Part shown: piece by piece, positions 305 through 7,147 of the stretch
Layout of the letters: every line of letters starts with the position of its first letter
How positions within the stretch are numbered: position 1 is the stretch's first letter
The notes under the pieces: model-generated
The model's input: only the letters and a program-made list of their open reading frames with translations
Databases searched by the model: none
Told to the model about the DNA's origin: nothing
Position numbers and translations under genes: made by a program
Source of the DNA: a virus
Direction: 5' to 3' (one strand)
DNA: 7,147 bases
Virus genome (UHGV): UHGV-1395224

Positions 305-727
305 TTAAAACGGTATATTATCGCCGTACGGATCATCATTCCCCGACTGTTGTTTTGCCCTGTTCAGTGCGTCAGTAGCCTGGCCCTGTTGACCTTTTTT
401 GCCGCCCGGTCGCACCGTTCGCGCACTGATTACGCTGTCTGCGATAACCTGCCAGCCCTGCCGCGTTTCACCGTTCTGTCCAGTCCACTGGCTCACCTGC
501 ATGTTACCCGCCACGCTCAGGAGTTCGCCTTTGTGATGCTTTGCCAGCGTGTCGGCTTGTCTGCCAAACGCCAGGACAGATAACCACATCGTCGCCTGAC
601 CGTCATCCGACTGACTGCAGGGCAGTGATACCGCCATACGCGCCAGCGTCATGGGGATGCCCTTGCTGGTCTGTTTTGTCTGCGGGTCGTCCACCAACCT
701 CCCGTAAACTGATATTTGCGCCGTCAT
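305..727 (-). CDS. Single-stranded DNA-binding protein (SSB family), 140 aa
   Basis: OB-fold-like core whose segment WLSVLAFGRQADTLAKHHKGELLSVAGNMQVSQWTGQNGETRQGWQVIADSV aligns by eye with the E. coli SSB segment [52 protein letters not shown]. C-terminal tail ends DDPYGDNIPF (canonical SSB ends DDDIPF). Start ATG overlaps the upstream stop as ATGA at 724-727. Confidence 0.75.
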   Translation of the reverse strand: MTAQISVYGRLVDDPQTKQTSKGIPMTLARMAVSLPCSQSDDGQATMWLSVLAFGRQADTLAKHHKGELLSVAGNMQVSQWTGQNGETRQGWQVIADSVISARTVRPGGKKGQQGQATDALNRAKQQSGNDDPYGDNIPF

Positions 728-981
728 GCTGCCTGCTCTCCGGACTTAATATTGATGGTTGTCACTTCCTCCGCTTCGGCAATCTCCCGTTCGGTCAGCG
801 TGGCAAAGTTTGCAGCCGCCGTTGTCATGAATGCGCTTATCAGTTCGGGATGTGCTTTCGCGTATCCTTCCCCGGCGTTGCGATCTATTGCCTTAATCGC
901 CACCCTTAGCCAGTGTTCAGCCATATCAAGGGCACGGTAATGTGGCTTTATATGTTTGTTCAGTTTTCCTGATGTGTGCAT
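724..981 (-). CDS. Hypothetical protein, 85 aa, translationally coupled to the SSB-like gene
   Basis: Complete ORF immediately downstream of the iteron region. GAGGGGG lies about 11 nt upstream of the ATG at 981. Stop overlaps the SSB start (ATGA). No family recognised. Confidence 0.5.
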   Translation of the reverse strand: MHTSGKLNKHIKPHYRALDMAEHWLRVAIKAIDRNAGEGYAKAHPELISAFMTTAAANFATLTEREIAEAEEVTTINIKSGEQAA

Positions 982-1026
982 TTTTATTTTTACCCCCTCG
1001 TTTAAAAAGTTTTGAAATGTGGTGCA

Positions 1027-1260
1027 CCTCCTCTACCTCTCTACCTAATCATCTTTCAGGTCAGTAATGGCGCGGCTTTCAGATGGGTAGAGGGCTTTCG
1101 GGGCCCTCTACCCATCCTCTACCCGCCCCTCACAAATGACCTTAATCATGGTGGAGGAGGTAGAGGGCTTTTATTTGCCTTCTACCTGGCCCTCTACCTG
1201 CTTATCATATTGAATAATATATATTTATTTTCTTTAGGTAGAGGAGGTAGAGGGCTTTTG
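1027..1260. repeat. Iteron array, putative replication origin: about 10 copies of GGTAGAG(G) in both orientations plus an AT-rich spacer
   Basis: CTCTACC at 1031-1037, 1039-1045, 1106-1112, 1117-1123, 1192-1198 and degenerate TTCTACC at 1180-1186. GGTAGAG at 1086-1092, 1159-1165, 1237-1243, 1246-1252. A 19-bp repeat GAGGAGGTAGAGGGCTTTT occurs at 1154-1172 and 1241-1259. Inverted pair GGGTAGAGGGC (1085-1095) and GCCCTCTACCC (1103-1113). AT-rich stretch 1201-1236. Lies directly 3' of the primase-helicase stop. Confidence 0.7.
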
Positions 1261-1267
1261 TCTAAAA

Positions 1268-5438: not shown

Positions 5439-6680
5439 TCACACCACCTCTTTATTAAGCTCGATAACGTTGTTGTTAAATCCTGCTATCGTATTAAGGT
5501 AATTAACCCACATATTAAGCACCTCAAGTTTTTTCTTTATATGCCTGCTTTTATTGTAAACACCAGCAACCCCTTTCACTTTATGGCCTAAAAGAAGTTC
5601 CACAATATAAGGATCCGCCCCCATATCATTAAGCGCAGTGGAAAATGTGCGCCTGAAATCATGTATGCACCACAAGCCATTAGTATCATGACCAAGACGC
5701 CTGCATATTCTGTTTGCAGCCCCTGTTATTGTCGCCCTTTGCAAAGCACAACCGACAACATAACCGCGATTTTTTGTTTCTGCGTAAAGATTAACGATCC
5801 ATTGTTTTATTCCGTCAGGAACAGGCCTTACTATAGCCTCCTTGTTTTTGCTGTGCTCTTTTGGGACTGTCCATACCCAGTTTTTTAAATCCCATTCGTC
5901 CCAGGTGGATAGCCTCGCCTCCTGCTGTCGGCAACCAAACACCAGGCAGATAACCATTATTCTTCGGTTATATATTGATGACAGAGTTAGCAAATTATTA
6001 CCGTAAGCATAAGACCATACATCAGCGGTTTCATTGATATTAAGAACGCGATCCCTTATACCGGATGAGCGCCCGACATAACTTACGTTAATATCTCCAA
6101 AGGGATCGCACGCGATGTATTGCCTGACGCGACAAAAACGCAACGCCTGTTTGATATCAAGAAAAATTGCACCAGACATAACAGGCGCATTTTTTTTGAT
6201 CCTGTCAAAGACGGTAAGCCATGTGTGTAATTTGCACTGTTCTATAGCCATATCACCGATATAGGGGAAGATATGCTTTTCAAATCGTTTTATTAAATAT
6301 TCATGCTCTTTTCTGGCTGTTGTGGCGTGATTATCGTACCAGTAAAACAGCGCATCCCTTACGGTCACTGGTTGCATAGTTTTTTCGGCAGCAAGTTTTA
6401 TTTGCCTGCGGGGGTCCAGATTTTCAGCCAGCCATTCACGGCACTGATCACGCATGCGCCTGGCCGTTGCAAGAGACATGTCAGGATAGCGACCAAGTGT
6501 AAGCCATACCGGAGGGGATTCCCTGCCACCAAGACGATAGTAAAAAACAAAGCTGATCCCCCCAACCATGCTTACACGCACAGACAACCCGCGCCCATCC
6601 GCTATTGTTTTTTGTTTGTCCTGCCGTTTTCCGACAAGACTCTTTAACAGTTTGTCACTGAGTTTGTTTTCAATAGCCAT
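5439..6680 (-). CDS. int: Tyrosine recombinase / integrase, P4-like family, 413 aa
   Basis: N-terminal arm-binding-type region LSDKLLKSLVGKRQ...DGRGLSVRVSMVGGISFVFYYRLGG. C-terminal catalytic signature HDFRRTFST...LLGH...GVY. GAGGG lies 6 nt before the ATG. Confidence 0.9.
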   Translation of the reverse strand: MAIENKLSDKLLKSLVGKRQDKQKTIADGRGLSVRVSMVGGISFVFYYRLGGRESPPVWLTLGRYPDMSLATARRMRDQCREWLAENLDPRRQIKLAAEKTMQPVTVRDALFYWYDNHATTARKEHEYLIKRFEKHIFPYIGDMAIEQCKLHTWLTVFDRIKKNAPVMSGAIFLDIKQALRFCRVRQYIACDPFGDINVSYVGRSSGIRDRVLNINETADVWSYAYGNNLLTLSSIYNRRIMVICLVFGCRQQEARLSTWDEWDLKNWVWTVPKEHSKNKEAIVRPVPDGIKQWIVNLYAETKNRGYVVGCALQRATITGAANRICRRLGHDTNGLWCIHDFRRTFSTALNDMGADPYIVELLLGHKVKGVAGVYNKSRHIKKKLEVLNMWVNYLNTIAGFNNNVIELNKEVV

Positions 6681-6696
6681 TAAAAGCCCTCAAGAG

Positions 6697-6752
6697 ATTT
6701 GCAATACACACCCATCCCGATCGCCAATTTGCAATACACATTGCAATACACA
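6697..6752. repeat. Three direct repeats of TTGCAATACACA at 17-72 nt upstream of the int start; candidate recombinase arm-type or regulator binding sites
   Basis: ATTTGCAATACACA at 6697-6710 and 6727-6740 (30 bp apart); TTGCAATACACA again at 6741-6752, tandem to the second copy. Confidence 0.55.
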
Positions 6753-6828
6753 AAACCGCGAAAAACTGGAAGGGTGATGAACGGTCATCAAAAGCATGGA
6801 AAACGACATTCCAGACGCAGCAAGGGTT

Positions 6829-7147
6829 TCAGTGGAGTTGGCGAACGATGCGGGCAACTACGGTGAGATGATAGACATAAATCGCCTTCACAATGGCGCT
6901 CTGCAGCTGCGTGTTCTGCAGCGTGTCGAGCATCTTCATCTGCTCCATCACGCTGTAAAACACATTTGCACCGCGGGTCTGCCCGTCCTCCACGGGTTCA
7001 AAAACGTGAATGAACGAGGCGCGCCCGCCGGGTAACTCACGGGGTATCCATGTCCATTTCTGCGGCATCCAGCCAGGATACCCGTCCTCGCTGACGTAAT
7101 ATCCCAGCGCCGCGCCGCTGTCATTAATCTGCACACCGGCACGGCAG
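6829..7147 (-). pseudogene. Truncated internal fragment of a lambda-family portal protein gene (gpB-like), fused to 17 unrelated codons before a stop
   Basis: Minus-strand translation from the window edge reads CRAGVQINDSGAALGYYVSEDGYPGWMPQKWTWIPRELPGGRASFIHVFEPVEDGQTRGANVFYSVMEQMKMLDTLQNTQLQSAIVKA, which I recognise from memory as an internal segment of phage lambda portal protein B. After AIVKA the frame continues IYVYHLTVVARIVRQLH and stops at 6829-6831. No start codon in the window; the track's M at 7134 is a GTG. This stretch is visibly more GC-rich than the neighbouring integrase region. Confidence 0.65.

Follow-up and report, generated by a model that had tools for sequence, protein, structure and literature searches.

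The window, that is, the whole stretch of 7,147 nucleotides of the virus genome UHGV-1395224 that was analysed, very probably comprises the integration, Bro and replication zones and the first late-zone codons of a helper-embedded phage-inducible chromosomal island (HE-PICI) of site group B:Phage_portal_2:241, inserted in the portal gene of a lambdoid prophage and co-oriented with it. This kind of element is already known: the helper-embedded satellite family was described in 2023, and both the family and the portal site group were catalogued by Tommasini, Mageeney and Williams (PMC10111431). The element is genuine and well organised but not new, and the copy in UHGV-1395224 is a fresh mosaic of known modules which adds little beyond that. 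Apart from this single study, no further primary literature on helper-embedded satellites was found, and our literature search revealed no experimental work on the portal-site HE-PICI group.

A phage satellite could be recognised from gene order alone by a reader of the raw sequence. The flanks mattered as well: it is about 260 bases of portal gene at the edge of the window that show the 'island' to be a satellite lying within its own helper. What the sequence-only reading overlooked is the feature that defines HE-PICIs, in that the island is embedded in a portal gene of a lambdoid prophage and has the same orientation. Until a helper-embedded satellite excises, it withholds an essential gene from its helper; parasitism that acts in cis in this way is unusual.

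The portal-gene junction and the attachment sites

The right end of the window (6881..7147, minus strand) holds the N-terminal part of the helper's lambda-family portal gene, the cognate of gene B (Pfam Phage_portal_2, 7e-21). The match ends at position 242 of the 354 in the profile, after which the frame enters satellite DNA and stops at 6829-6831, the ORF at 6829-7134 being a chimera of portal codons followed by satellite DNA. The attL identity block or crossover core, AAGGCGAT, was found at 6881..6888 on the minus strand and equals the published identity block; about 160 nt around it match the published attL of Eco10269.11.B_Phage_portal_2_241 letter for letter in a comparison made by reading. 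The element had been proposed to span positions 305-6830. These limits have to be revised, since the attL core lies at 6881-6888, position 305 is only the end of the SSB gene and the element runs leftward past position 1.

The other junction was seen in the complete genome L001, where a second AAGGCGAT octamer is present at 11447-11454 and the two portal halves flank a 10.8-kb insert; this attR side lies outside the window. When the empty site was rebuilt by joining the window fragment to the C-terminal portal fragment of L001, an open frame was obtained which is 100% identical over 140 nt to lambda phage portal genes. In L002, a sequence 100% identical to the window, Nu1, gpA and gpW are located directly upstream in the same orientation, and the context in both L001 and L002 is that of a lambdoid late operon. 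Since the junction recurs in 16 IMG/VR contigs as well as in complete genomes, the portal fragment is unlikely to be an assembly chimera. These 16 contigs with the integrated junction also served as positive control in a search for the attP junction predicted for the excised circle; neither IMG/VR nor the JGI metagenome contigs yielded a match to it, a negative result that is not decisive.

A hallmark of HE-PICIs is a doubled tgTGTATTGCantgTGTATTGCa situated at approximately 81 bp on one side and 132 bp on the other side of the crossover (PMC10111431). The integrase arm-type sites of the window (6701..6752, minus strand) consist of the doubled motif tgTGTATTGCaatgTGTATTGCa at 6730-6752 and a third TGTATTGC at 6701-6708. 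The doubled TGTATTGC motif starts 132 bp from the core centre, the published spacing being 132 +/- 2 bp, and the doubled motif of the other side was located in L001 at 11529-11548, outside the window and approximately 80-100 bp from the core. Twenty-two loci carry this motif, every helper-embedded one among them, and three lack it; by elimination, these three are the chromosomal PICIs L006-L008. A tRNA search detected no tRNA gene in the window; the element has no tRNA integration site.

That we are dealing with an ordinary chromosomal Gram-negative PICI or a P4-like satellite in a bacterial gene, interacting with its helper only in trans, is very improbable. The order int-alpA-...-rep-ori-SSB is indeed common to chromosomal PICIs at tRNA-Ile and roxA, but the flank of the window is a lambda-family portal gene with Nu1, gpA and gpW directly upstream, which refutes this explanation, and attL equals the one published for an HE-PICI. 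Moreover, genes for the capsid-size control and regulation of P4 are absent from the window (no Pfam, PHROG or NCBIfam match to sid, psu, delta or epsilon homologues), and Rfam, searched with the entire window at E <= 1, gave no C4/isrK RNA, only two microRNA-family matches inside inverted iterons, which were below gathering scores and were taken as chance. The element had been likened to Gram-negative PICIs and P4-like satellites; a PICI-type satellite it is, but with neither sid, psu and delta nor the C4/isrK RNA it is not a member of the P4 family.

It is extremely improbable that the insert is a native module of the lambdoid phage, such as a moron or an alternative replication module, and not a separate element. 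Such a module would likewise be found within a prophage, and the IMG/VR contigs include the element. Nevertheless, its interior gave 0 matches in 50,697 sequenced phage records, 80 of which contain the uninterrupted site, and it interrupts an essential gene and possesses its own integrase, att sites and origin.

Integration, Bro and late zones

The Integration, Bro and Replication zones of the HE-PICI follow one another in this order and are complete in the window, which also holds 29 capsid codons of the Late zone; whole genes of that zone were found in L001. The genes int and alpA, the replication gene and the portal fragment all lie on the minus strand. Profile searches of the ORFs bore out the gene inventory of the sequence-only reading (int, alpA, a small-ORF cassette, a primase-helicase gene and SSB), with the genes on the minus strand. 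The statement that all genes are co-directional is correct for those named, but not for a gene for a 57-aa protein located on the plus strand at 4248-4421.

The int gene (5439-6680, minus strand) codes for a tyrosine integrase (Pfam Arm-DNA-bind_3, 3e-17; Phage_integrase, 1e-14), which is 99.8% identical to that of the portal-site element of L001 and 54% identical over its full length to that of the prototype Eco567.11capE (11capE). No sigma-70-like promoter was found ahead of int. The coupling of alpA to int, already noticed before, is tight, as alpA (5180-5437, minus strand) starts 1 nt after the int stop codon; its product belongs to the excisionase/activator family (Phage_AlpA, 7.5e-14; PHROG 2790). 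Between alpA and the following gene, a terminator-like hairpin with a T-run is predicted (5149..5167, minus strand; 7 pairs, 5 of them G-C; tail TTTTTGT). The Bro zone consists of a gene for a Bro-N domain protein of the anti-repressor family (4545-5123, minus strand; Bro-N, 5e-20; PHROG 2593 anti-repressor, 9e-85). Over the int-alpA-Bro region the window is 99.4% identical to the copy of the portal-site group in the complete genome L001. A PADLOC search of 10 proteins for anti-phage defence genes gave 0 matches.

At the left end of the window (1..87, minus strand), the Late zone opens with the initial 29 codons of the satellite's own gene for a lambda E-like major capsid protein. The residues that they encode equal residues 1-29 of the capsid protein of L001, which matches Phage_cap_E (3e-41). 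Full-length relatives measure about 10.8 kb, and their late zone contains an E-like capsid, a D-like decoration protein, an AlpA-like HTH protein, a cos-like segment and a Nu1-like small terminase. The suspicion that packaging genes lie to the left was thus well founded, since the relatives carry capsid, decoration, HTH and small terminase genes just left of SSB, and the alternative offered with it, a minimal replicon-type island, can be abandoned. The late zone of L001 is made up of the capsid, decoration, HTH and small terminase genes and one hypothetical gene only. Because portal, protease, head-tail connector and large terminase genes are absent from this full-length relative, the element must use those of the helper. 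The late zone and attR of the exact window variant were not recovered; each of the five contigs identical to it breaks off at the capsid gene.

Replication zone and the cassette of a candidate Arc-like repressor

The replication operon begins with a gene for an Icd-like protein (3921-4118, minus strand; NF033153, 1.2e-17), followed on the same strand by three small overlapping ORFs of 61, 63 and 80 aa (3743-3928, 3552-3743 and 3320-3562; PHROGs 3672, 1478 and 5796, respectively), the last of which is unrelated to the L001 allele (22% identity). Next comes a DUF4222 protein gene (3016-3315, minus strand; PF13973, 9e-24), whose stop codon overlaps the start of the replication gene. At the other end of the zone, orf85 (724-981, minus strand; PHROG 1231, 3e-48) overlaps the start codon of SSB (305-727, minus strand; PF00436, 2.7e-16), the product of which ends in the C-terminal tip ...NIPF. 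A hairpin at 262-286, after SSB, was discarded as a minus-strand operon terminator, the scan having called it on the plus strand only.

The replication protein of 583 aa (1268-3019, minus strand; D5_N, 8.5e-16; DUF5906, 5e-10; TIGR01613 above cut-off) has four parts, namely a TOPRIM-like N-domain (1-130), D5_N, an SF3 helicase and a P4-alpha-type winged-helix origin-binding domain, the last one, at the C-terminus, being homologous to that of P4 alpha (1ka8, 3e-7). It had been taken for a P4-alpha/D5 primase-helicase. D5_N and an SF3 helicase are present, but no catalytic primase domain was detected by sequence, with only a sub-threshold match to DUF4332 in residues 1-150, and the likeness to P4 alpha is limited to the C-terminal domain. 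A fold search suggests that the N-terminal 130 residues fold like a TOPRIM domain. In the alignment of the N-domain, however, the acidic residues canonical for TOPRIM could not be made out among the invariant columns, which makes primase activity doubtful.

Between the replication gene and orf85 lies the replication origin (1030..1253), in which 11 iterons of the GGTAGAGG type, some in each orientation, surround an A+T-rich stretch (87% A+T, 1199-1236). The iteron origin previously recognised is supported by the counts: allowing up to one mismatch, GGTAGAGG occurs 13 times in the window versus 2.9 expected, and 0 of 200 shuffles reached 13 copies. Compared with L001, the replication protein diverges mainly in the origin-binding domain (78-84% identity, versus 98-100% at its N-terminus), and the iterons differ too, with GGTAGAGG in the window versus GGTAGAC/T in L001.

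Seven plasmid records share parts of this replication module at 83-88% identity, as would be expected if the DNA belonged to a plasmid or ICE backbone that uses a P4-type primase and an integrase. The probability of this is close to nil. None of the plasmid matches covers more than 36% of the element, all seven plasmids are predicted to be non-mobilizable, and plasmid partition genes were not found in or beside the element. Conjugation genes in the flanks had been named as the finding that would point to such a backbone; 15 kb of flanks contain no relaxase or type IV secretion gene but lambdoid late genes, which refutes it.

The sole plus-strand gene (4248-4421) codes for a 57-aa Arc-like ribbon-helix-helix protein, a candidate repressor (PHROG 228 Arc-like repressor, 3e-7; Pfam Arc, 0.006). 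Its counterpart in L007 differs by 27 nucleotides, 24 of them at third codon positions, and the two proteins differ by 2 amino acids; by this comparison of sequences, the gene is evidently under purifying selection. A terminator-like hairpin is predicted after it (4515-4535). Some gene callers place a minus-strand ORF of 153 aa at 4127-4588, antisense to the Arc-like gene; we rejected this ORF, which has no family match and whose codon-position pattern favours the plus frame.

A promoter-like site of the replication operon is predicted on the minus strand at 4193..4254 (-35 TTGACA at 4254-4249, -10 TACTAT at 4231-4226); this call, like the other promoter and terminator calls, is a plain match to a consensus, and the window holds no excess of promoter-like sites (6, versus 10 expected). 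Three copies of the palindrome ATGGTAATTACCAT, at 4193-4209, 4205-4221 and 4235-4251, overlap this site as putative operators. The palindromes are conserved in L007, and in L008 palindromes and protein N-terminus change together. An unrelated PICI carries the repressor cassette with 100% identity, and from such comparisons it is apparent that the Arc-like gene and its operators are exchanged between PICIs as one cassette.

The Arc-like repressor with its operator cassette is possibly a new detail. We tentatively propose, as an idea with a modest chance of being right, that the Arc-like protein and the three palindromic operators together make up a protein-based master switch governing the replication operon in Gram-negative PICIs, carried on a cassette that is mobile between embedded and chromosomal PICIs. 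The cassette could then be exchangeable and immunity-like, with Arc-like and YlcI/YnfO alleles, each having its own operators, and the Bro-N anti-repressor homologue may lift repression once terminator-resistant late transcription of the helper passes the terminator after alpA. The existence of such a repressor in Gram-negative PICIs was termed 'unclear' in the founding 2018 paper (PMC6092414), and the cassette, if it acts in this way, could explain the silence of these elements.

These exchanges also bear on whether the copy is a stranded relic, in which the satellite or its helper is defective and which is inherited vertically inside a decaying prophage with neither excision nor transfer. 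We regard this as unlikely. It would agree with the absence of the attP junction from two large collections, with the survey report that many helpers look truncated and that infectious particles of the prototype 11capE were not detected (PMC10111431), and with the fact that 4 of the 20 first-listed E. coli relatives show an IS interruption (H3, H8, H17) or a second integrase annotation (H19). However, every ORF of the window is intact and tightly coupled, an integrase with 99.8% identity to that of L001 is combined with an exchanged allele of the replication module, and the repressor cassette is the same as in an unrelated PICI; mosaics of this kind imply recent recombination among active elements. 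In addition, the identical sequence is present in one NCBI assembly and, independently, in several samples of gut metagenomes.

Proposed life cycle and comparison with known systems

In the life cycle that we propose for this HE-PICI, only the first step, silence under prophage repression, is drawn from the present data, and the later ones are modelled on 11capE and EcCICFT073. As long as the prophage is repressed, the satellite would remain silent, with no sigma-70-like promoter before int and with the replication promoter overlapped by operators for its own Arc-like repressor. Upon induction of the helper, late transcription (Nu1-A-W-portal') would read into int and alpA, and Int and AlpA would recombine the two AAGGCGAT cores, which would free a circle of about 10.8 kb and restore the portal gene of the helper. 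The replication protein would bind the GGTAGAGG iterons via its P4-alpha-like C-terminal domain and unwind the A+T-rich centre, with SSB assisting replication. Finally, the late zone outside the window (E-like capsid, D-like protein, AlpA-like HTH protein, Nu1-like small terminase and cos-like segment) would see to it that the satellite is packaged into particles for which the helper supplies portal, protease and tails. Upon induction of 11capE, the composite was excised first, then replicated, and the satellite was excised afterwards (PMC10111431), and over-expression of AlpA induces EcCICFT073 (PMC6092414).

The window shares with the Eco10269.11.B_Phage_portal_2_241 group the attL, the AAGGCGAT core, the doubled TGTATTGC motif with its spacing, the four-zone order, the host genus and the portal target codon. 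Compared with the portal-site copies, its replication zone is another allele, with 88% nucleotide identity to L001 and approximately 90% to the other closest complete E. coli genomes. It differs from L001 in its diverged iterons, in the replacement of one small ORF, and in that the plus-strand YlcI/YnfO gene is replaced by the Arc-like gene with its own operators. The architecture of the prototype 11capE (E. coli NRG857c, site E:Phage_cap_E:80) corresponds gene for gene, with int, an AlpA-type HTH protein, a small regulator on the opposite strand, Icd-like and DUF4222 proteins and the replication protein, followed by the same order of ori, small ORF, SSB, capsid, decoration and HTH; it also has the doubled motif and iterons around an A+T-rich centre. 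However, 11capE targets the capsid gene instead of the portal gene, its integrase and replication protein are 54% and 48% identical to those of the window, its iteron is GGTGAACAG, and its genes include DUF262/HEPN cargo but no Bro-N gene at the corresponding place.

In EcCICFT073 and other Gram-negative PICIs, int, alpA and the replication genes share one orientation, two iteron sets around an A+T-rich region come after a pri-rep type gene, and lambdoid helpers and cos-based packaging are used (Fillol-Salom et al. 2018, PMC6092414); gene orientation and origin layout of the window match, and helper and packaging are likened here to theirs. EcCICFT073-type PICIs differ in occupying chromosomal sites, in interacting with the helper only in trans and in lacking the doubled TGTATTGC motif. 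With P4, the element shares the integrase and AlpA-type regulator, Bro-network and Icd-type genes and a homologous C-terminal origin-binding domain; unlike P4, it has no CI (C4/isrK) RNA, and its helper is lambdoid rather than P2-like. P4 alpha has about 777 aa, versus 583 aa for the replication protein of the window. Like capsid-forming PICIs (cf-PICIs), relatives of the window have their own major capsid, decoration and small terminase genes, but the full-length relative L001, unlike cf-PICIs, carries no portal, protease, head-tail connector or large terminase gene. Finally, in the immI region of P22 (Arc, Mnt, Ant), a small Arc-type ribbon-helix-helix repressor with palindromic operators stands beside an Ant/Bro-type anti-repressor gene; by analogy, the window would combine the same kinds of parts in another gene order, with putative operators that cover the Icd-to-replication promoter and not that of the anti-repressor.

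Insertion into the portal gene of a lambdoid prophage

The boundary of the satellite-like island had been set at position 6830 in the sequence-only reading, which turned out to be merely the stop codon of a chimeric open reading frame. Portal homology stops at AAGGCGAT (6881-6888), and the frame continues for 17 codons into unrelated DNA. In L001, the closest complete E. coli genome (strain A0 34/86), the same junction belongs to a portal gene split in two: its N-terminal half lies at the junction, and its C-terminal half is located 10.8 kb away, past a second AAGGCGAT. The order of the lambdoid late operon in this genome is Nu1, A, W, portal', insert, 'portal, C, D, E and tails. 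The genes for Nu1, gpA and gpW were also found directly upstream, in the same orientation, in L002, a contig of 49 kb with 100% identity to the window. When the portal fragment of the window was joined to that of L001, the result was an open frame matching lambda-type portal genes at 100% identity over 140 nt. This joined query matched 84 phage records, with most of the query covered in 80 and at least 99% identity in 67 of the 84. The interior of the element gave no match among 50,697 phage records, and nothing beyond fragments, in seven records, among plasmids. The portal junction, the lambdoid flanks and an interior without phage match therefore show that this is a separate integrative element, inserted in an essential late gene of a prophage.

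The chimeric frame (6829-7134) joins an N-terminal stretch of the portal protein, reaching approximately position 240 of the 354-position Pfam profile, to 17 satellite-encoded residues. We speculate that this fragment, if expressed with the late operon, might disturb head assembly of the helper.

Helper-embedded phage-inducible chromosomal islands (HE-PICIs) were defined by Tommasini, Mageeney and Williams in 2023 (PMC10111431). In the supplementary attL alignment of their group B:Phage_portal_2:241, the identity block is aaggcgat (PMC10111431), and, by our own reading of the two sequences, the published attL of this group coincides letter-for-letter with the minus strand of the window from about 6937 to 6780. 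A doubled motif, tgTGTATTGCantgTGTATTGCa, has been described as unique to HE-PICIs, at 132 +/- 2 bp from the attP centre (PMC10111431). In the window, the doubled tgTGTATTGCantgTGTATTGCa is located at 6730-6752 and begins 132 bp from the core centre. Among the loci compared, it was present in 22, all portal-site elements and the prototype 11capE included, and absent from three, by elimination the chromosomal PICIs L006-L008. The integrase shows 54% identity to that of 11capE over the full length. Judging from these identities, it probably belongs to the HE-PICI clade. The element falls into the helper-embedded PICIs of portal site 241, a group that has already been catalogued, and the proposal of a satellite is supported.

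Gene content, replicon and late zone

An ORF analysis of the window placed every substantial gene except one on the minus strand, and families were assigned by Pfam, PHROG and NCBIfam-type profile searches. In transcription order, the portal gene fragment (6881-7147; Phage_portal_2 7e-21, profile 152-242 of 354) is followed by the tyrosine integrase gene int (5439-6680; Arm-DNA-bind_3, Phage_integrase), by alpA (5180-5437), starting 1 nt past the int stop, and by genes for a Bro-N protein (4545-5123; PHROG anti-repressor 9e-85) and an Icd-like protein (3921-4118; NF033153). Then come overlapping small ORFs of 61, 63 and 80 aa (3320-3928; PHROGs without known function), DUF4222 (3016-3315; PF13973), a replication protein of 583 aa (1268-3019; D5_N, DUF5906, TIGR01613), a non-coding stretch with iterons (982-1267), orf85 (724-981; PHROG 1231), SSB (305-727; PF00436) and the first 29 codons of a capsid gene (1-87). 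These family matches, taken in transcription order, therefore confirm the gene list and order read from the sequence alone; co-directionality holds for all substantial minus-strand genes and fails for a single plus-strand gene at 4248-4421.

The sequence GGTAGAGG, allowing up to one mismatch, occurs 13 times in the window versus 2.9 expected, a number reached in none of 200 shuffles. Eleven copies lie within 1030-1253, in both orientations, flanking a stretch of 87% A+T; this enrichment and two-sided layout bear out the predicted iteron origin. Origins of E. coli PICIs have the same layout, with iterons around an A+T-rich region (PMC6092414). Rfam matches to mir-7563 and MIR2617 at 1175-1257 were below the gathering scores and were dismissed as chance, because the hairpin is made by the inverted iterons around the A+T centre of the origin.

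In the replication protein, a profile search identified D5_N and SF3-helicase regions, residues 225-431 match PDB 7ola, deposited as 'DNA primase' (7e-15), and the C-terminal domain aligns with the P4 alpha origin-binding domain (1ka8, 3e-7). A primase catalytic domain was not found by sequence search. Residues 1-130 match no Pfam family and are confidently predicted to adopt a TOPRIM-like fold, with the primases DnaG, T7 and Twinkle as the nearest structures. The invariant columns in an alignment of this N-domain do not evidently include the canonical acidic motifs. Other E. coli PICIs carry the same N-domain joined to RepA/AAA_25 helicases. The designation 'primase-helicase' is thus only partly shown: helicase and origin-binding functions are supported, and the primase activity is putative. 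Compared with L001, the protein is 92.5% identical overall, its most diverged part being the origin-binding domain (78-84% versus 98-100% at the N-terminus), and the iterons (1030-1253 in the window, 15981-16271 in L001) differ in their last two bases, GGTAGAGG versus GGTAGAC/T. This joint divergence suggests a possible allele-specific recognition of the origin.

Packaging genes had been expected either to the left of the window or, in a minimal replicon-type island, not at all. The first option is borne out by L001, in which SSB is followed by a lambda E-like capsid gene (Phage_cap_E 3e-41), a D-like decoration gene, a second AlpA-family HTH gene and a small terminase gene; the capsid, decoration and small terminase genes speak against a minimal replicon. 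The remainder of the zone consists of one hypothetical gene and some 800 bp without coding sequence. Genes for a portal protein, a protease, a connector, a large terminase, tails or lysis are absent from the L001 element, which depends on the helper's portal, encoded by the gene that it has split. The small terminase resembles Nu1 only over the latter's C-terminal half (profile 80-162 of 164), and its own N-terminus is unrelated. The interval separating the HTH gene from the small terminase gene includes 77 nt that share 88% identity with the sequence immediately preceding the helper's own Nu1, the expected location of a cos site; the terminase and this copy adjoin each other at L001 12557-13275. 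The arrangement looks like a way to stay in contact with the helper's large terminase with a changed DNA specificity.

Sequence 100% identical to the window occurs in a contig of NCBI assembly GCA_047762795.1, in a human gut metagenome contig and in two further metagenome contigs (L002-L005). All five identical contigs and the window stop at or close to the capsid gene, and at their opposite end the three metagenome contigs stop inside the portal gene, consistent with assemblies breaking at repeats shared with the helper or with other prophages. The far end of this variant would be expected about 4 kb left of SSB, reading ...TTTTCATAAAGGCGAT and then GTATGCCGCC... into the rest of the portal gene.

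Exchangeable modules and a candidate repressor

Identity to L001 is 99.4% in the int-alpA-Bro part, 97.5% in the Icd part and 88.4% in the replication part, and 3329-3593 and 4191-4443 have no counterpart there. Among the IMG/VR contigs, 16 share the junction of the window; their integration zones are conserved at 95-99.8%, and their replication zones are either of the L001 type or unrelated. At least 80% of the window was matched in only 52 of 5,426 complete E. coli genomes, and this exact combination of modules was not seen among them.

The sole plus-strand gene (4248-4421), overlooked in the sequence-only reading, encodes a ribbon-helix-helix-type, Arc-like protein of 57 aa (PHROG 228 3e-7; Pfam Arc 0.006). 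Compared with the 91%-identical copy in L007, a locus with a chromosomal PICI, 24 of the 27 nucleotide differences fall on third codon positions, leaving two conservative amino acid changes; this pattern marks the ORF as a real gene. Just upstream lie three copies of the palindrome ATGGTAATTACCAT. They overlap the sigma-70-like site with the best score in the window (minus strand, 4254 to 4226, TTGACA-17-TACTAT, 10/12 match), which faces the operon from Icd-like to replication. The palindromes are unaltered in L007, and in L008, another chromosomal PICI locus, the DNA-reading N-terminal part of the protein differs and a different palindrome replaces ATGGTAATTACCAT. The cassette (4193-4421) recurs, with 100% identity across 266 bp, at the equivalent position of the unrelated tRNA-Ile PICI of L006, which has another integrase and replication gene. 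In L001 and 11capE, this slot holds a YlcI/YnfO gene, likewise on the opposite strand, whose product aligns weakly with the Arc-like protein, and the L001 gene is accompanied by a different inverted repeat, overlapping a promoter-like site on the minus strand. On the strength of consensus scans and a single case of covariation, L008, we propose an exchangeable repressor-operator module that may keep the replication operon off.

Expected activity and comparison with known PICIs

The analysis directly establishes the embedding, the att core and arm-type sites, the parts of the replicon and, in relatives, the late zone. A consensus scan detected no promoter-like site between the core and int, and late transcription of the helper would cross the portal fragment to reach int and alpA. 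At 5149-5167 on the minus strand, 13 nt past the alpA stop and ahead of the Bro-N gene, lies a hairpin that resembles a terminator and has a T-run. It is expected to be passable only to terminator-resistant (e.g. Q-modified) helper transcription, and such antiterminated transcripts could continue into the Bro-N gene. Excision would restore the portal gene that both partners need, with TTTTCATAAAGGCGATTTATGTCTAT as the predicted attP of the circle and GTGAAGGCGATGTATGCC as the restored attB; the predicted attP junction was not found in IMG/VR or JGI metagenome contigs.

The putative Arc-like switch is the sole part of the element that possibly adds something new, and it offers a testable lead because the founding PICI paper of 2018 calls a global repressor in Gram-negative PICIs 'unclear' (PMC6092414). 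In EcCICFT073, helper-dependent expression of AlpA leads to excision and replication, which depend on int and pri (PMC6092414). The prototype 11capE has the same order as the element described here, gene for gene. At the end of its late zone (L025 10237-11953), it carries on the opposite strand a DUF262 and HEPN gene pair that looks like defence cargo, whereas the window holds nothing of this kind and its proteins gave no PADLOC match. Upon induction of 11capE, excision of the composite is followed by replication and then by excision of the satellite (PMC10111431).
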